NCBI RefSeq assembly: GCF_009931435.1
Contig: NZ_CP043414.1
Origin: Escherichia coli
GTDB lineage: Bacteria; Pseudomonadota; Gammaproteobacteria; Enterobacterales; Enterobacteriaceae
DNA: 64,000 nt
Direction: 5' to 3' (one strand)
The notes below the pieces were generated by a model, which searched no databases, was not told the DNA's origin, and worked only from the letters and a program-made list of their open reading frames with translations. Below, in pieces: positions 22,961 through 31,179 of this stretch (position 1 is its first letter; each line of letters opens with the position of its first letter). The translations under genes were made by a program, and so were the position numbers.

Positions 22961-24625
<1,665 letters not shown>

Positions 24626-24640
24626 CAGGCCAGCACCGAT

Positions 24641-24673
24641 GCCTGATAAGACGCTTAATGCGTTTTATCAGGC
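24641..24673. repeat. REP-like palindrome between convergent dtpD and phr (likely bidirectional terminator)
   Basis: gcctgataagacgcttaatgcgttttatcaggc. Confidence 0.45.
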
Positions 24674-26086
24674 ACCTTTCTTCGCTTCTTCATACGCTGC
24701 CAGCGTTCGCAGCCTTGCCTCTTTGTGGTCAACTATCGGTTGCGGATAATCCAGCTTCACACCTGCTTTCTCTGCCCACTTCCACGGTTCATGCACCGCT
24801 TTCCCTGGTACATCGCGCAACTCTGGTAGCCACCGGCGAATAAACTCGCCCTCGCGGTCAAATTTCTCGCCCTGGGTTGTCGGGTTGAAAATACGAAAAT
24901 ACGGCGCTGCATCAGTACCCGTAGAAGCCGCCCACTGCCAGCCACCGTTATTGGCTGCCAAATCACCATCAATCAGCTGCGACATGAAATACCGCTCGCC
25001 TTCGCGCCAGTCGATCAACAAATCTTTCACCAAAAAGCTTGCTGTAATCATCCGTAGCCGATTATGCATCCAGCCAGTGCTGTTAAGCTGACGCATGGCC
25101 GCATCAACAATCGGGTATCCCGTTTTGCCTTCCTGCCAGGCCTTTAAATGCGCGGGATTACTTTGCCACTGTACGCGATCGGTCCAGGCAATAAAGGGGC
25201 GATGCTTACACAGTGACGGGTGATACGTCATCAAATGACGGTAGAACTCGCGCCAGATCAGCTCATTAAGCCAGACGCTACCAGCCCCGCCATCCAGCGC
25301 ATGCGGCTGTTCCGCCAACAGGCGATGCAGACACTGGCGAGGCGATAACCTACCCGTTGCAAGGCTTGCAGACAAACGGCTGGTGCCTTCCACTGCCGGA
25401 AAATCACGCTGCTGATCGTACTGACTCGCACCGTTCTGGCAAAACTGGCGTAATTGCGCAATCGCCGCTTTTTCTTCCACCGGGAAATGCGCGGTATCGA
25501 ATGACTGACGAGGGTAATTCAGCGTAATAGATGGCGCGGGATCTAATGATCCGCTACTCCGAACTTTTGGCGCAGCGACGCACTCCGGCATCCCTTCCCG
25601 CAGCCGTTTCAGCCAGGCGTTTTTAAATGGCGTAAAGACTTTGTACATCTCATGATTGCCAGTCATCACCGCCCCCGGCGGCAGGATCACGCTGTCATCA
25701 AATCCTTCACACACCACGTTACGCAGCGTTCTCTCAACCTGCACATCCCGCGCCCGCTCATTCACCTCATACTGATAGTTATAAAACAGATGGGTAACAC
25801 GGTTTTCCGCGCACACCTGTTTAACTATTTCGACGCTGGCGGCAAAGTCATCCACTTCATGAAACAGCAAAGGAATGCCTTTTTCCGCCAGCGCGATTTG
25901 TAGCCCGTTCAGTTGTGCATTGATAAATTCAGCCTGACGCGGCGACATATTATGCGCCGCCCACTGGCGTGGTGTAGCGATATACAACGCCAGCACGCGT
26001 GCAGACGAATTGCGGCAGGCGGCAGCAAGCGCGAGATTGTCGTGCAGACGTAAATCCTGGCGAAACCAGACCAGATGGGTAGTCAT
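24668..26086 (-). CDS. phr: deoxyribodipyrimidine photolyase
   Basis: 472-aa ORF MTTHLVWFRQDLRLHDNLALAAACRNSSARVLALYIATPRQW. Confidence 0.95.
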   Translation of the reverse strand: MTTHLVWFRQDLRLHDNLALAAACRNSSARVLALYIATPRQWAAHNMSPRQAEFINAQLNGLQIALAEKGIPLLFHEVDDFAASVEIVKQVCAENRVTHLFYNYQYEVNERARDVQVERTLRNVVCEGFDDSVILPPGAVMTGNHEMYKVFTPFKNAWLKRLREGMPECVAAPKVRSSGSLDPAPSITLNYPRQSFDTAHFPVEEKAAIAQLRQFCQNGASQYDQQRDFPAVEGTSRLSASLATGRLSPRQCLHRLLAEQPHALDGGAGSVWLNELIWREFYRHLMTYHPSLCKHRPFIAWTDRVQWQSNPAHLKAWQEGKTGYPIVDAAMRQLNSTGWMHNRLRMITASFLVKDLLIDWREGERYFMSQLIDGDLAANNGGWQWAASTGTDAAPYFRIFNPTTQGEKFDREGEFIRRWLPELRDVPGKAVHEPWKWAEKAGVKLDYPQPIVDHKEARLRTLAAYEEAKKGA

Positions 26087-26592
26087 AAAACTCCTGCATG
26101 GCGCAAGTTAATCACCCGCGGCCAAAGTTCGAAATAACGCTGCTCTGAAAGCCAGGCGTCAGGATAAAGCGCCATATAGTGTTTGATACGCATCAGCGGC
26201 GCAAGAAGCGGTTGCTCGCCACGGCGATAACTGTCGATAAGCGCCGCCAGCTGCTGGCGTTCTGTGGAATCAATATGTGGGCGAAAATAACCCTGAACGT
26301 GCATCAAAACGTTGGTGTGATCGCGCGGGTTGGCGGGATGAGAAAGCAAAACAATTACGCGTTGGCGGTACTGGTTGTAATAGTCACCCAGATTTTGCCA
26401 CTGGTGAATATCAGCCACAAACGGGCCAAGTTTGCGGTATTCCGGCTGGGAATGAGCCAGAAAGACGAGTTTATAGCGGCTGTGATAATCGAGAAGCGCC
26501 CCGCGCGTTAAGCCTCGCTCTTTAAGACGGTGTAACTCATGCAAAGCAAAAATGCGGATAAGGGTGCTGTCATCAAAAAGTTGTTGATTCAT
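26083..26592 (-). CDS. ybgA: DUF1722-family protein cotranscribed with phr
   Basis: 169-aa ORF MNQQLFDDSTLIRIFALHELHRLKERG, stop overlaps phr start. Confidence 0.9.
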   Translation of the reverse strand: MNQQLFDDSTLIRIFALHELHRLKERGLTRGALLDYHSRYKLVFLAHSQPEYRKLGPFVADIHQWQNLGDYYNQYRQRVIVLLSHPANPRDHTNVLMHVQGYFRPHIDSTERQQLAALIDSYRRGEQPLLAPLMRIKHYMALYPDAWLSEQRYFELWPRVINLRHAGVL

Positions 26593-26676
26593 TACTACTC
26601 CTGGGCGGTTTACAGGAGTAAGTGTAGACGGCGGTACTGAAAAAACGAAACGAATAAATGATAACAGTAAAAAAAT

Positions 26677-27126
26677 TCAATTATTCATAATAAATTTCAT
26701 GGTGGCAAGAAATAGTTTCTTTTCTTCATCACTCATGGCAGCAACGTTTAACATGTTGTCATCAAAATTATTGATGATATTTTTTAATTTCAGTAACTGC
26801 AAAGGAGAAAAATAGTCACTCCCGATGAGATTACTCAATACCAGCAATAGCTCCCCATCATATAAATAGCCCACCATAAGATTAATCTCTATCATCTCAA
26901 TTGCTTTTTGTACAGCAAGCGCCGGTAAGATATTCTGACGAAGCATTTTGGCAATATCATTTTCATCCAGTTCATCGGGTGTTTTATCTAATAAAGAATT
27001 ATACCAGTTTATTAAACCACTTTTGAAAGCGAACGAATCATATTGCAGGTGATAAATCTGTTTTAGGGTTTCTTTATTTTTCAATTTATAGTGCCTTTGT
27101 TTGCTATAATTTTTCTGAAATAACAT
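26677..27126 (-). CDS. hypothetical protein, 149 aa, AT-rich, predicted helical; immunity-protein-like by context
   Basis: ORF with ATG overlapping the stop of the upstream gene (TGATG); strongly AT-rich codon usage unlike flanking core genes. Confidence 0.6.
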   Translation of the reverse strand: MLFQKNYSKQRHYKLKNKETLKQIYHLQYDSFAFKSGLINWYNSLLDKTPDELDENDIAKMLRQNILPALAVQKAIEMIEINLMVGYLYDGELLLVLSNLIGSDYFSPLQLLKLKNIINNFDDNMLNVAAMSDEEKKLFLATMKFIMNN

Positions 27127-27593
27127 CAGCGAGTTTGCTCAGGTGCAGGGATGACCGAAATTGTCATGTATTTTTTCAGTCTGGCTTCTCGTTTCACACC
27201 TTTCGGATCTGAACCAAAAGGAAGCGTCAAGCATGGTGAGTCAACGGTTTGGATTGTCCAGAGAGAATCACCAATGAATCTGAAATTGATGCTATCCGCT
27301 GTAACGGATAATCCCTCAAAACTTCCCGTCGCATACTCATTACCCAAACGTACGGTCTCTTTAACTCCATCATTAACATCGATAAGGACAATTGTCAGTG
27401 ATTCCTCAAAAATAACGTCATCCGTCAGAAAAAGGATATAACGCTGGTCATTAACCTGAATTGCCGCTTCCAGTATTTGCCCTGGTACAATAATACCTGT
27501 GTTATTGCCATTGAGCACAACGTCAGACTGAGCCTGAGATAAATCAGTCGCTTTGTGAACCTTGACCAACGATATCGAATTAACCTGTTGCAT
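27126..27593 (-). CDS. hypothetical protein, 155 aa (start at MQQVNSISLVKVHKATD; the 186-aa track ORF is probably over-extended)
   Basis: ATG at 27593 two nt downstream of the stop of the glycine-zipper ORF; first 31 codons of the track ORF overlap that ORF in another frame. Confidence 0.6.
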   Translation of the reverse strand: MQQVNSISLVKVHKATDLSQAQSDVVLNGNNTGIIVPGQILEAAIQVNDQRYILFLTDDVIFEESLTIVLIDVNDGVKETVRLGNEYATGSFEGLSVTADSINFRFIGDSLWTIQTVDSPCLTLPFGSDPKGVKREARLKKYMTISVIPAPEQTR

Positions 27594-27595
27594 AA

Positions 27596-27736
27596 TCAAT
27601 TCCACAAGCGCCCCATTTCCCATGCGGCAAGTGCACCGCCGACAAAGCCGCCAATAAGTACGCAAACAGGTGCACCTGGACCACACACCAATCCTGCCAT
27701 CGCGCCGCCTGCGACAGCTCCGGCAATAATATTCAT
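27596..27736 (-). CDS. small glycine-zipper membrane peptide, 46 aa (MNIIAGAVAGGAMAGLVCGPGAPVCVLIGGFVGGALAAWEMGRLWN); candidate small toxin or C-terminal remnant of a polymorphic toxin
   Basis: translated by hand from the minus strand; repeated GxxxG/AxxxG motifs, two hydrophobic segments; weak Shine-Dalgarno; open frame continues 35 codons upstream to a TAG at 27842-27844 without a start codon. Confidence 0.4.
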   Translation of the reverse strand: MNIIAGAVAGGAMAGLVCGPGAPVCVLIGGFVGGALAAWEMGRLWN

Positions 27737-27919
27737 CCGGGTACGACTGCCAGTGGTTTTAACAGATTTGCGCTCACCGTTACGTATCCTGCCACCACTC
27801 AGGTTGCAGACGCGGCAGTCACAGCCTTGACGGTGTTGAAACTAAAGTTCAGGTGATAGTCTGATGTTCATAGTTTGAGCATTATCCCCTGACAGAATCA
27901 AATCAAGCAGTGTCAATGA

Positions 27920-28177
27920 TCACGTGTATATATCATTTAAAGCATTATCAAGCCAATCTTCCATGTTTTTAATTTTAGCCCGCGCATATAAATCATTCAT
28001 AACATCCTCATAACTCTGTCCATCATTGACCATACAATTAGCTGTATGAGGCAGAACATGTATAAAATCAGACAATATAAAACAAGCCTTTGAATTTCCA
28101 GAGTTAGCTGCAATTCTGATATCAATCAATCCTCTGGCAATCAATTTAAGAATAACATCTTGCATTTTAATTTCCAT
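27920..28177 (-). CDS. hypothetical protein, 85 aa, AT-rich
   Basis: ORF MEIKMQDVILKLIARGLIDIRIAANSGNSKACFILSDF downstream of the SUKH-like gene on the same strand. Confidence 0.45.
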   Translation of the reverse strand: MEIKMQDVILKLIARGLIDIRIAANSGNSKACFILSDFIHVLPHTANCMVNDGQSYEDVMNDLYARAKIKNMEDWLDNALNDIYT

Positions 28178-28259
28178 ATCATTCAGTTAAATTTCAGTAG
28201 TAAATCGTCTATCAAAAAAAGATGAAATTAACATTCATAAATTTATTACAATATGAAAA

Positions 28260-28613
28260 TCAAAAATATACATCATCAGCTTCTACCGAAAACTCCATGG
28301 CTCCTAAGGCACCTAAATCAATACTAAATATAGTATCACTTTCCTTAGCACTCCCAACATAGATAAAATAGCCTAAATCTCCGTCTTGACCTATCAAAAA
28401 ATAGTCAGGTTCCACTTGTTGAATATCATATGTTTCATTTCTTTCAATAAGATCAGAATAGTTATATAAATATAATGTTTCGTGCTTCTTATTAGTTATT
28501 TCATAGGTCTCACTATCTTTAATTTCTTCTATCAAAAAACGTTTATACACTGGAGGAAACTTGATTGACATGTCAAATTCAATTTTATTTATATATTCTA
28601 TAATTTTATTCAT
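28260..28613 (-). CDS. SMI1/KNR4 (SUKH)-like immunity-type protein, 117 aa
   Basis: motifs FPPVYKRFL and FLIGQDGDLGYFIYVG...IFSIDLG resemble the SUKH superfamily pattern; assignment by eye, not by search. Confidence 0.55.
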   Translation of the reverse strand: MNKIIEYINKIEFDMSIKFPPVYKRFLIEEIKDSETYEITNKKHETLYLYNYSDLIERNETYDIQQVEPDYFLIGQDGDLGYFIYVGSAKESDTIFSIDLGALGAMEFSVEADDVYF

Positions 28614-28848
28614 GTTAAGAATACCTGAAAGATTATTTATTGATTATCTTGATGAATATATCTTCACTTTTTATTTTCATTTACTCATCGCGGAAATACA
28701 CATTGCCTTGTAGACAAGCGCTAATAATACGTTATGAACCTGACTTCCGCCAGACAATCAATCAATGAATTCATTACGCCGTAGTGTTTTAGAAAGACAC
28801 TTTCTGACCAGATGGTGAACCATATACTACATCGCGCATTATAAAAAA

Positions 28849-28872
28849 ACCGCCAGCGTTTCCACTAGCGGT
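28849..28872 (-). terminator. intrinsic terminator downstream of ybfA
   Basis: imperfect hairpin accgccag-cgtttcca-ctagcggt with a U-run on the minus strand (plus-strand aaaaaaa at 28843-28849). Confidence 0.5.
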
Positions 28873-28897
28873 TTTCAATGTTTTCAAAACTCAGCAA

Positions 28898-29104
28898 TCA
28901 GTAAAAATCACCGGTTGCCTTTTCGGCCTGATCCATCCACACCGGTTTATCGCTGGTTTTCGACCAGACGCGGTGCAGGTAGCTGTAAAAGCGGGCGCGG
29001 TCTTTCCAGAAAAGCATGAAAGGCAGCGCCAGAACGCCCGCTGCAACCGCATAAGTACGGCGTAAAAAGATAAGCCATGCAGGATATTCTCTGTAAAGTT
29101 CCAT
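28898..29104 (-). CDS. ybfA: DUF2517-family small protein
   Basis: 68-aa [71 protein letters not shown]. Confidence 0.9.
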
Positions 29105-29416
29105 ACTTTTCTCCCCCTTTTGTATCTACCCGGTGAATGGCACCGGAAAAATGAATTTGTTTATCTGATGAAAATAGTACCGCCTTTTGTGTAATTTTAC
29201 TACTCATCCGACCACTTATTTTTGCTTATTGATGGTTTATTTACATTCATCCCGTAATTAAGTTACATAAAAGTTAAATTAATACTAAACATTAGTTAAA
29301 TCATGGCTTTTGCCATTTTTATACTTTTTTTACACCCCGTCCGCAGATTTTTGCGAAATCTTTGCAGCCAGAATTCTACCCTTCCGGTATCACTTTTAGG
29401 CCACTGGAGGTGCACT
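29105..29416 (+). promoter_or_regulatory. kdpFABC promoter region (KdpE-dependent)
   Basis: AT-rich spacer upstream of kdpF; function from established knowledge, binding site not mapped. Confidence 0.5.
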
Positions 29417-29506
29417 GTGAGTGCAGGCGTGATAACCGGCGTATTGCTGGTGTTTTTATTACTGGGTTATCTGGTTTATGCCCTGATCAATGCGGAGGCG
29501 TTCTGA
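29417..29506 (+). CDS. kdpF: K+-transporting ATPase small subunit F (29 aa, GTG start)
   Basis: GTG-initiated [29 protein letters not shown]; stop overlaps kdpA ATG (TGATG). Confidence 0.85.
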
Positions 29507-31179
29507 TGGCTGCGCAAGGGTTCTTACTGATTGCCACGTTTTTACTGGTGTTAATGGTGCTGGCGCGCCCTTTGGGCAGTGGGCTGGCGCGGCTGATTAA
29601 TGATATTCCTCTTCCTGGTACGACGGGCGTTGAGCGCGTACTCTTTCGTGTACTCGGCGTGTCTGACCGTGAGATGAACTGGAAGCAATATCTCTGTGCC
29701 ATTCTCGGCCTGAATATGCTGGGGCTGGCAGTGCTGTTTTTTATGTTACTCGGTCAGCACTATCTGCCGCTTAATCCGCAACAACTGCCGGGGCTGTCGT
29801 GGGATCTGGCGCTGAATACTGCCGTCAGCTTTGTCACCAATACCAACTGGCAATCTTATAGCGGTGAAACCACGTTGAGCTATTTCAGCCAGATGGCGGG
29901 CTTAACGGTACAAAACTTTCTTTCTGCCGCCAGCGGGATTGCGGTGATTTTTGCCCTCATCCGCGCGTTTACCCGCCAGAGCATGAGCACACTCGGCAAT
30001 GCCTGGGTCGATCTGCTACGCATCACGTTATGGGTGCTAGTCCCTGTGGCGTTGTTGATCGCACTGTTTTTTATTCAACAAGGTGCGCTGCAAAACTTTC
30101 TGCCCTATCAGGCGGTGAATACCGTTGAAGGAGCGCAACAGCTGTTACCCATGGGGCCTGTAGCTTCTCAGGAAGCGATCAAGATGCTCGGTACTAACGG
30201 CGGTGGCTTCTTTAATGCCAACTCGTCGCATCCGTTTGAAAACCCAACCGCACTGACCAACTTCGTGCAGATGCTGGCGATCTTCTTGATCCCAACAGCG
30301 CTGTGCTTTGCCTTTGGTGAAGTGGCAGGCGATCGCCGCCAGGGGCGCATGTTGCTGTGGGCGATGTCGGTGATTTTTGTCATCTGCGTAGGCGTGGTGA
30401 TGTGGGCAGAAGTTCAGGGTAATCCTCATCTGCTGACGCTGGGTGCGGACAGCAGCATCAATATGGAAGGTAAAGAAAGCCGTTTCGGCGTGCTGGTCAG
30501 TAGCCTGTTTGCGGTCGTGACTACGGCGGCTTCCTGTGGCGCGGTGATTGCGATGCATGATTCGTTTACCGCTCTCGGTGGCATGGTGCCGATGTGGCTG
30601 ATGCAAATTGGTGAAGTGGTATTCGGCGGTGTCGGTTCTGGTCTTTACGGCATGATGCTGTTTGTTCTGCTGGCGGTATTTATTGCCGGGCTGATGATTG
30701 GTCGTACGCCGGAATATCTGGGTAAAAAAATCGACGTACGCGAGATGAAACTGACCGCACTGGCGATTCTGGTCACCCCAACGCTGGTACTGATGGGCGC
30801 AGCACTGGCGATGATGACCGACGCCGGACGTAGCGCCATGCTCAATCCTGGCCCGCATGGTTTTAGCGAAGTGCTGTACGCCGTGTCGTCCGCCGCTAAC
30901 AACAACGGCAGCGCCTTTGCCGGATTAAGCGCCAACTCTCCGTTCTGGAACTGTTTACTGGCGTTCTGCATGTTTGTCGGTCGCTTCGGGGTGATTATCC
31001 CGGTGATGGCAATTGCCGGTTCGCTGGTGAGTAAAAAGAGCCAACCCGCCAGCTCCGGCACGCTGCCAACGCACGGCCCGCTGTTTGTAGGCCTGTTAAT
31101 CGGCACCGTGTTGCTGGTTGGCGCACTGACCTTTATCCCTGCCCTGGCGCTTGGTCCGGTGGCGGAATATCTCTCCTGA
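29506..31179 (+). CDS. kdpA: K+-transporting ATPase subunit A
   Basis: 557-aa product [33 protein letters not shown] within ORF 29362..31179. Confidence 0.97.

Follow-up and report, generated by a model that had tools for sequence, protein, structure and literature searches.

The site between ybfA and ybgA, where Escherichia coli K-12 carries the rhsC element, holds a short block of minus-strand open reading frames in another E. coli strain. What is this block, and what might it do for its host? We analyzed it in a stretch of 64,000 nucleotides from contig NZ_CP043414.1 (hereafter the window). Judging from sequence comparison, the block is probably an orphan array of immunity genes that has no working toxin and would protect against the contact-delivered toxins of competitors. 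The four intact genes (g1, g2, g4 and g5) would be expressed from one strand behind an AT-rich leader, each product binding and neutralizing one toxin family, of the T6SS/Rhs or CDI type, from competing Enterobacteriaceae. The fifth reading frame, g3, would have been carried in as debris along with its partner gene g4. The sequence data below show the gene content, the family assignments, the truncation of the toxin, the structure of the insertion, the distribution, the purifying selection and the near-identity across species; we infer that the array is co-transcribed, that it protects against incoming toxins, and which toxins it neutralizes.

An AT-rich block in place of the rhsC element

In a blastn comparison with the K-12 locus, homology stops at window position 26630 and returns at 28844, which delimits the island proper (Table 1). 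It is slightly narrower than the interval 26593–28897 given in the preliminary description, which had the flanking genes ybgA and ybfA right but took in two core segments that lie outside the island, the terminator hairpin of ybfA and 38 bp in front of ybgA. The end of K-12 homology falls right behind the T-run of this terminator. The MG1655 interval measures 9.6 kb and reads rhsC-ybfB-ybfO-ybfC-ybfQ-ybfL-ybfD; this and the blastn breakpoints bear out the earlier statement that K-12 has rhsC and its downstream modules at this junction. The two arrangements share the junction and the transcriptional orientation of a known rhs locus. They differ in size (2.2 kb versus 9.6 kb) and have no sequence in common, so the possibility that the K-12 interval is identical can be dismissed, and an Rhs core with a toxin tip is present in K-12 only. 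The term 'Rhs-derived' would apply in a positional sense only, the island showing no Rhs sequence.

Table 1 Features of the ybfA–ybgA interval, in window coordinates
Feature	Position	Strand	Description	Basis or remark
ybgA	26083-26592		Flanking gene	RefSeq annotation of the same locus in other strains
Island proper	26631-28843		2.2 kb	No K-12 counterpart; sits in place of the 9.6-kb rhsC element
g5	26677-27126	-	CdiI_3 immunity protein (predicted)	149 aa from ATG 27126 or 135 aa from TTG 27084
803-bp block	27118-27920	-	Carries g3 and g4	In the five-gene form, absent from the three-gene form
g4	27126-27593	-	155-aa all-beta cytoplasmic protein (predicted), orphan	Conserved downstream partner of the glycine-zipper toxin
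g3	27596-27736	-	46-codon ORF	Final 44 codons left from the gene of a glycine-zipper membrane toxin of ~240 aa
5' side of insert	27729-27919	-	~190 bp, no homology to intact toxin loci	Source of the g3 ATG
g2	27920-28177	-	85-aa helical ORFan, presumed immunity-type	Position, size, patchy spread
g1	28260-28613	-	117-aa SUKH-1 (SMI1/KNR4) immunity-type protein	Pfam, PDB and RefSeq names
Leader	28614-28843	-	230 bp, AT-rich, upstream of g1	Presumed promoter region of the array
ybfA terminator	28843-28872	-	Intrinsic terminator, hairpin and T-run	Read from sequence; core/island boundary
ybfA	28898-29104		Flanking gene	RefSeq annotation of the same locus in other strains

The compositional shift noted earlier is clear. 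In 400-nt windows, GC is 0.28–0.40 across 26400–27400 and 27800–28800 and rises to about 0.48 in the sub-block 27400–28000, giving an island range of 0.28–0.48 against 0.50–0.58 in the flanks (phrB/ybgA and kdpA/B). The five short reading frames previously listed, all on the minus strand, are present at the sizes given (117, 85, 46, 155 and 149 aa), but only four of them are regarded here as genes, the 46-aa frame being the 3' remnant of a toxin gene. The block is a mosaic of at least two origins rather than one homogeneous island.

No direct or inverted repeats of att-like character were found at the island ends, and the island has no integrase-sized ORF. An Rfam scan of 26000–29600 gave no tRNA-family match, all hits at E ≤ 1 being at chance level. 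The integrase, tRNA-family match (Rfam scan) and flanking repeats by which a classical genomic island or integrative element is recognized are therefore absent here. The leader has no ORF in any frame and is 99–100% identical within the five-gene form of the island and 83% identical in the three-gene form (described below). A promoter would be placed in this leader; a promoter and terminator scan, which stayed at background level throughout, found no consensus sigma-70 site upstream of g1. Scans of the five island products against NCBIfam, PADLOC and PHROGs returned nothing usable.

Two products match immunity protein families

The product of g1 matches Pfam SMI1_KNR4 significantly but weakly (E = 1.6e-4; SUKH_6, 0.0087; SUKH_5, 0.015) and, in the PDB, the Smi1/Knr4-family protein 3d5p (E = 1.6e-5). 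These matches uphold the earlier designation of g1 as an immunity-type SUKH protein, and RefSeq labels its variants 'SMI1/KNR4 family protein'. In Paraburkholderia, VgrG is followed by a 1558-aa protein whose stop overlaps the start of a g1 relative (33% identity), and in Bernardetia a relative (45%) lies in a T6SS-linked immunity array behind a DUF6531 giant toxin. Relatives of g1 are thus found directly downstream of VgrG-linked giant toxins, the polymorphic-toxin neighborhood that serves as a criterion for SUKH proteins. The g1 product is expected to neutralize a family of contact-delivered toxin.

At the other end of the array, g5 matches Pfam CdiI_3 (PF18616) over residues 24–99 (E = 2.7e-17) and, over residues 36–128, PDB 5j5v chain C, 'Immunity protein CdiI' (E = 2.1e-6). 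The RefSeq annotation reads 'contact-dependent growth inhibition system immunity protein', and PGAP chooses the TTG start for g5 in some genomes. On plasmid pCP127 of EC93, an orphan Ntox28 toxin lies downstream of cdiA, and a g5 relative (35% identity) overlaps the toxin's stop codon. A CdiA-CT directly before g5, which would mark a cognate pair, was not found: the upstream gene is g4, and the interval holds no toxin ORF, cdiA or cdiB. Because no toxin ORF adjoins it in the window, g5 is seen as a family member in the orphan state. The chain 5j5v C, from the PF18616 family, is the CdiI of uropathogenic E. coli 536; g5 matches both the family HMM and this solved chain, but its sequence identity to it is low and it has no adjacent CdiA-CT.

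A toxin tail and its partner inserted into g2

The remaining reading frames are less familiar. Only 29 relatives of g2 were found among 5.8 billion proteins, and those with names are nearly all from E. coli or E. fergusonii. AF2 predicts a bundle of five helices (pLDDT 91.6), the Foldseek relatives of this fold are all uncharacterized proteins, and no recognizable family could be assigned. We presume an immunity role for g2 from its position, small size and patchy phyletic spread. In the three-gene form of the island g2 encodes 94 aa; its original 3' end was removed in the window by an 803-bp insertion, which pairwise alignment with E. coli Ecol_316 maps inside the g2 3' end. The 803-bp block was found in only 13 of 5426 genomes.

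Within the insert, positions 27118–27728 are 94% identical to an intact toxin-partner locus. Homology begins only at 27728, at about toxin codon −44, and the g3 start codon is fortuitous, supplied by unrelated junction DNA. This junction DNA (27729–27919) has no homology to intact toxin loci, and its DNA matches are confined to the same 13 genomes. A PGAP call over 27681–27800, 'IS630 family transposase, partial', was rejected; the frame contains stops and no IS copy matches. The intact toxin is about 240 aa long and helical, with a C-terminal hydrophobic glycine-zipper hairpin, of which g3 keeps some 18%, having lost the helical domain entirely along with the first hydrophobic helix. On this evidence g3 is the 3' remnant of a toxin and not an independent gene, and is probably debris. 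The preliminary description of g3 as a glycine-zipper membrane peptide was correct insofar as a real toxin family ends in this segment, but the peptide itself is a 44-codon remnant with a chance start.

The partner, g4, is retained in full. It has 124 relatives, among them the partner in a metagenomic contig (33% identity, E = 5e-27), and no sequence match in Pfam, NCBIfam or the PDB. Its AF2 model (pLDDT 83.7) has propeller-blade-like fold matches, and Foldseek returned uncharacterized proteins only. With neither signal peptide nor TM segment, the protein is predicted to be cytoplasmic. We presume that g4 is the immunity protein to the glycine-zipper toxin. Since it is kept without the toxin and bears the signature of purifying selection, immunity to an external toxin is the suggested role. 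Immunity proteins to membrane-disrupting toxins are usually membrane or periplasmic, and the cytoplasmic location of g4 is a point against the immunity reading.

The parent toxin-partner family

An exhaustive search with a profile of the g3 family collected 507 proteins, mostly of 230–530 aa, and in nearly all of them the domain forms the very C-terminus. Strains carrying the intact toxin belong to Enterobacter, Citrobacter or Kosakonia, with a toxin of 240 aa in Citrobacter sp. NCU1. The parent toxin has no match in Pfam, NCBIfam or the PDB. When large polymorphic toxins (Rhs, CdiA) with a terminal g3 domain were sought, a word-indexed search returned only proteins of 46–144 aa, and the profile search contained one protein of 1360 aa that matches internally. 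One family member, P0194, carries an N-terminal PAAR fusion (NCBIfam, 143 bits versus a cutoff of 124; Pfam, 1.7e-17).

We compared 59 species loci with a g4 homologue. A full-length toxin ORF lies just upstream in 23 of them, a truncated remnant in about 8 and no toxin in about 28. PAAR was found in none of the 59 and VgrG nearby in two, both toxin-free. Toxin-g4 pairs often adjoin a P4-type primase (phrog_2249, 5.7e-200), and the closest donor-like sequences for the insert appear to be toxin-partner pairs on P4-like satellite elements of Enterobacteriaceae. Because a T6SS is rarely adjacent and the P4-type primase often is, a toxin-antitoxin or phage-defense role of the intact pair is possible. 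A more specific proposal is that the parent is an undescribed two-gene system, disseminated chiefly by P4-like phage satellites rather than T6SS loci and serving as an abortive-infection or addiction module, with the E. coli stub, still coupled to g4, as a domesticated mini-toxin; we consider this very improbable.

Distribution and history of the island

The five reading frames are not ubiquitous core genes, a possibility that the preliminary description had left to be checked: among 5426 complete E. coli genomes, 170 carry the island, 13 in its five-gene form and 157 in the three-gene form. A count of 3866 of 5426 genomes with rhsC at the site is rough only, because repeated Rhs core makes up 81% of the query and the search was not strictly site-specific. 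The five-gene form is 98.7–100% identical in E. fergusonii, while the neighboring dtpD, phrB and ybgA are only 92–94% identical. As the island is near-identical while its flanks differ by 6–8%, a recent exchange between E. coli and E. fergusonii is indicated.

These patterns suggest an order of events. A three-gene array (g1, g2 and g5) would have occupied the ybfA–ybgA site first, the 803-bp piece with the toxin tail and g4 would then have entered the 3' end of g2, and the resulting five-gene form would recently have moved between the two species, E. fergusonii and E. coli, through homologous recombination within its conserved flanks. Growth of such an array, by the entry of a fragment with a toxin tail and an immunity gene, and its spread, seen in the near-identical copies of 13 E. 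coli genomes and of E. fergusonii, can both be followed at this locus.

Alternative explanations

The preliminary description proposed an orphan toxin/immunity cargo at the rhsC hotspot, to which the SUKH protein, the CdiI_3 protein and the toxin tail with its partner lend support, and named an uncharacterized, active small-gene system as the alternative, which we do not favor. In one rival reading, g3 and g4 form a live two-gene module for toxin-antitoxin or abortive infection, in which the 46-aa glycine-zipper membrane peptide serves as a small toxin or as an effector and its translation is coupled to that of a cytoplasmic antitoxin or sensor. The spacing is suggestive, with 2 nt from the g3 stop to the g4 start and a 1-nt overlap of g4 and g5. 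Moreover, the 46-aa ORF is open in both E. coli and E. fergusonii, and intact pairs sit beside the primase on P4-like satellites and rarely near T6SS genes. We nonetheless give this module little credence: 44 of about 240 toxin codons are left, the borrowed ATG has no evident Shine-Dalgarno in the sequence, and PGAP leaves g3 uncalled in most genomes. PADLOC 2.0 detected no anti-phage defense match for any of the five products, g3 and g4 included, or for the full-length toxins of the g3 family. Many species, furthermore, keep g4 alone, which would be senseless for an antitoxin and is sensible for an immunity protein.

A different origin, which we judge unlikely, would be from an ancestral Rhs element, with the block as its decayed distal end and the downstream immunity and orphan array having survived deletion of the main rhs gene. 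Site and gene orientation are shared with K-12 rhsC and the downstream ybfB/ybfO/ybfC modules, Rhs and CDI toxins are followed by genes of this type, and PMC3150448 describes orphan modules that lie behind rhs and cdi genes. Against this, neither DNA nor protein comparison detected similarity to RhsC, YbfO or other K-12 element products (best tblastn E = 0.27), remnants of PxxxxDPxGL or YD repeats are absent, and an rhs gene is joined to the array in none of the 170 E. coli or the examined E. fergusonii genomes. The g3-g4 piece, moreover, derives from stand-alone toxin pairs rather than from Rhs tips, and the g5 family is CDI-associated. It is also most doubtful that the block is hitch-hiking DNA of no function, AT-rich junk that is silenced, drifts and is kept only for its place between two conserved genes, even though its GC is very low, no consensus promoter precedes g1, an IS5 lies inside g1 in one genome and no gene is called at the g5 position in one relative (L011). 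The values of dN/dS across the island genes lie between 0.05 and 0.37, indicating purifying selection (g1, 0.05 versus the three-gene form; g4, 0.18–0.29; g5, 0.23; g2, 0.37). The ORFs are intact in the examined genomes of both island forms, which differ by about 8%, and the near-identical copies in both species point to recent exchange. For the immunity array, the possible silencing of very AT-rich DNA and the missing consensus promoter upstream of g1 are points against.

Comparison with known systems

The closest parallels are the orphan cdiA-CT/cdiI and rhs-CT/immunity modules of Poole et al. 2011 (PMC3150448), as those modules are described there. As in such modules, g3-g4 consists of a toxin C-terminal fragment without the delivery part followed by its presumed immunity gene, with more immunity genes stacked on the same strand at what is an Rhs-element locus in other strains, and a g5 relative occurs in a module of this kind on EC93 pCP127. 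The island differs in having no upstream full-length cdiA or rhs, and therefore re-arming by recombination is impossible; the 44-codon fragment is also too short for a functional toxin domain.

Clusters of orphan immunity genes directed against the T6SS toxins of non-kin are known as 'acquired interbacterial defense' in Bacteroidales and as arrays in Vibrio cholerae. Like these, the island combines several immunity families without cognate toxins, varies between strains and has undergone horizontal exchange, in this case between E. coli and E. fergusonii. It is much smaller, however (four genes), has no recombinase or mobile-element backbone, is found at one chromosomal site and probably moves by homologous recombination in its flanks. 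At the rhsC hotspot of E. coli, a toxin-free immunity array would be one alternative cargo, an ordinary though rare example of its kind; orphan immunity genes at polymorphic-toxin loci are already well described, and current understanding is unchanged.

Tse4, Tse5-CT and Ssp6 are membrane-depolarizing T6SS effectors with glycine-zipper segments. The g3 parent, which ends in a glycine-zipper hairpin and has one PAAR-fused member, resembles them by description only, and its partner is a predicted cytoplasmic all-beta protein, unlike a membrane or periplasmic one. The toxin-partner family is widespread in Proteobacteria and often resides on P4-like satellites, and with no counterpart in Pfam, NCBIfam or the PDB it is a reasonable target for a toxin/immunity assay.

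An island in place of rhsC

The genes at this site run dtpD (+), phrB (-), ybgA (-), the block, ybfA (-) and kdpFAB (+). In 400-nt windows the GC content of the block is 0.28-0.40 against 0.50-0.58 in the flanks, bearing out the shift claimed in the preliminary description; a sub-block at ~27400-28000 reaches 0.48. All five minus-strand ORFs of that description, here g1 to g5 from the ybfA side, are present at the sizes it gave, and its statement that K-12 carries rhsC at this junction holds for MG1655, where the interval contains rhsC, ybfB, ybfO, ybfC, ybfQ, ybfL and ybfD. The island proper is delimited by the positions at which blastn homology to K-12 breaks, 26630 and 28844, and stands in place of 9.6 kb in K-12. 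Its left boundary coincides with the end of the T-run behind the ybfA terminator hairpin. Neither direct or inverted repeats flanking the island nor an integrase-sized ORF within it were found.

Over glnS-nagE, the window matches complete E. coli genomes at 96-98.5% identity. Past the island on the ybgA side, the core genes (23144-26592; dtpD, phrB, ybgA) are unusually divergent and mosaic: compared with a range of E. coli and E. fergusonii genomes, phrB has 91-97% and ybgA 92-97% identity, versus 98-100% for ybfA, a pattern that suggests recombination has recurred around the hotspot.

Features of the ybfA-ybgA interval (window coordinates)
Feature	Position	Size	Strand	Description
ybgA	26083-26592		-	core flank
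ybfA	28898-29104		-	core flank
Island proper	26631-28843	2213 bp		blastn breakpoints versus K-12
g1	28613-28260	117 aa	-	SUKH-1 protein
g2	28177-27920	85 aa	-	helical ORFan
g3	27736-27596	46 aa	-	glycine-zipper rich
g4	27593-27126	155 aa	-	toxin's downstream partner
g5	27126 or 27084 to 26677		-	CdiI_3 protein
Inserted block	27118-27920	803 bp	-	alignment of three- and five-gene forms
Remainder of inserted block	27729-27919	~190 bp	-	no homology to intact toxin loci

Distribution and insertion history

Together, g1 and g5 occupy the ybfA-ybgA site in 170 of 5426 complete E. coli genomes, and g3 and g4 in only 13. The other 157 carry a three-gene form (g1, g2 and g5; 117, 94 and 135 aa) that is ~92% identical. 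Aligned with it, the five-gene form is the three-gene form plus a block in the 3' end of g2. The alignment also shows the displaced g2 tail still in frame, now extending g5 at its N-terminus when that gene is read as 149 aa. Of this block, 611 bp come from a locus encoding a glycine-zipper membrane toxin and its partner: the DNA of window 27118-27728 is 94% (L016) and 87% (Citrobacter sp. NCU1) identical to intact toxin-partner loci. In 12 of the 13 genomes RefSeq/PGAP labels 27681-27800 as a pseudogene, 'IS630 family transposase, partial'. The frame contains stop codons, no IS copy matching this DNA occurs in the 5426 genomes, and the label looks spurious.

E. fergusonii has the five-gene island too, in the same position. 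It is 98.7-100% identical to that of the window, whereas identity falls to 92-94% in dtpD, phrB and ybgA. The comparison indicates that the two species exchanged the island recently, and homologous recombination within the conserved flanks would be the simplest route.

Two further differences concern the three-gene form. In E. coli Ecol_316 (L002, 4148-4388), an extra ~240 bp, absent from the window, lies directly past the ybfA terminator, as an insertion at window ~28843; it contains the ERIC/IRU consensus, recognised by its likeness to the ERIC primer sequences (GTAAGCTCCTGGGGATT...). In E. coli WP7-S17-ESBL-01 (L015, 7960-8940), an IS5 lies inside g1 and cuts it short.

Immunity families of g1 and g5

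g1 matches Pfam SMI1_KNR4 (1.6e-4) and PDB 3d5p (1.6e-5), and some of its alleles are labelled 'SMI1/KNR4 family protein' in RefSeq. A Paraburkholderia relative (33% identity) overlaps the stop codon of the gene for a 1558-aa protein situated after VgrG, and a Bernardetia relative (45%) lies in an immunity array past a DUF6531 giant toxin, within a T6SS cluster. g5 matches PF18616 (2.7e-17) and chain C of PDB 5j5v (2e-6), deposited as 'Immunity protein CdiI'; 5j5v is the CysK-activated UPEC 536 CdiA-CT complex. On E. coli EC93 plasmid pCP127, downstream of cdiA, a g5 relative (35% identity) overlaps the stop codon of an orphan gene labelled 'polymorphic toxin type 28'. Since relatives of both adjoin toxin genes, the two families act like immunity genes for contact-delivered toxins. 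The pCP127 region (L075, 6381-14168) is a string of orphan toxin/immunity modules downstream of cdiA (Ntox28 with a CdiI_3-like gene, DUF6862, Ntox25), broken up by IS3 and IS66 elements.

The g3 toxin family and its g4 partner

The g3 frame has no stop for 35 codons upstream of its ATG. An exhaustive search of 1.84 billion representative proteins with a profile of g3 relatives gave 507 matches, in which the g3 domain nearly always forms the very C-terminal end; most of these proteins are 230-530 aa long. The full toxin unit (~240 aa) comprises a helical N-terminal part, one hydrophobic helix and a glycine-zipper hairpin, and has no match in Pfam, NCBIfam or PDB. Because one member (P0194, 414 aa) starts with a T6SS PAAR domain (NCBIfam 143 bits versus a cutoff of 124; Pfam 1.7e-17), at least some lineages probably deploy the glycine-zipper domain as a secreted antibacterial toxin. 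Three other members (P0257, P0253 and P0311; 458-531 aa) begin with a long extension that by eye looks more like a peptidoglycan-binding-type domain than PAAR, which would hint at another delivery route.

g4 has no sequence match in Pfam, NCBIfam, PADLOC or PDB, and its 124 relatives (Enterobacter, Cronobacter, Pseudescherichia, Kosakonia) are all named 'hypothetical'. Of 59 loci with a g4 homologue, scanned at one genome per species, 23 have a full-length toxin ORF whose end lies directly upstream, ~8 have a truncated remnant, and ~28 have g4 alone. A metagenomic contig has the same pairing (33% identity, E=5e-27). These arrangements make g4 the conserved downstream partner of the toxin, often retained after toxin loss. 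This retention and a dN/dS of 0.18-0.29 point to immunity against an external toxin rather than an addiction antitoxin.

Interpretation of the island

The evidence best supports reading the island as orphan immunity genes in an array (g1, g2, g4 and g5) with a toxin stub, g3. In K-12 the same locus holds a full Rhs toxin element; the window has the immunity array and stub instead. The array genes would shield their carrier from toxins delivered by competitors; we infer this protection, their co-transcription and their target specificity. As a less likely rival reading, the island could be a decayed Rhs element; it has no likeness to the K-12 Rhs element in DNA or protein. Another, also unlikely, takes g3 and g4 as a live mini-module. 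Given that the last 44 toxin codons and g4 are all that was imported, and that the ATG at 27736 sits in DNA unrelated to the toxin locus, g3 is a toxin remnant with a fortuitous start.

A third rival, likewise improbable, is that the island is junk DNA. Between the three- and five-gene forms, dN/dS is 0.05 for g1, 0.23 for g5 and 0.37 for g2.

Among 5.8 billion proteins g2 has 29 relatives, and those with a named source come almost entirely from E. coli or E. fergusonii. Its predicted fold is a high-confidence five-helix bundle (pLDDT 91.6); the few proteins of similar structure are small, uncharacterised and spread across distant phyla.

For CDI and Rhs loci, orphan toxin/immunity modules have been described before (PMC3150448), as have polymorphic toxin/immunity systems in general (PMC3482391). 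Modestly new are the insertion history of the immunity array, the nearly identical copies of it that E. coli and E. fergusonii share, and a toxin-partner family, absent from Pfam, NCBIfam and PDB, often on P4-like satellites.

Genomic contexts of the toxin-g4 pair

Intact pairs in Enterobacterales often lie beside a P4-alpha-type primase (phrog_2249, 5.7e-200) or ssrA, and T6SS genes are almost never adjacent. At three loci (L016, 1380-4904; L018, 5371-7468; L029, 239-7474) an intact 240-254-aa toxin and g4-like gene immediately follow the primase gene, and the Citrobacter pairs also adjoin apparent P2-like tail genes and a DNA invertase, judged from ORF N-terminal sequences; there the pair has the look of cargo on a satellite or prophage. 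In Enterobacter ludwigii (L005/L006, 7260-8468), a truncated toxin (78-98 aa) and g4 homologue lie directly behind ssrA (tmRNA) at its 3' end, where elements typically integrate, and in one strain adjoin a CbtA/CbeA toxin-antitoxin, RadC and antirestriction block. On a metagenome contig (L010, 8580-9680), a related toxin is split into 143 and 134 aa, and the gene behind it is no g4 homologue but another one, of 92-97 aa (faint DUF7079). Partners of more than one type thus occur in the toxin family. In Mangrovibacter (L037-L039) and Duganella (L057, L060), one toxin gene precedes two tandem or nearby g4-family genes, which suggests duplication or stacking of immunity genes.
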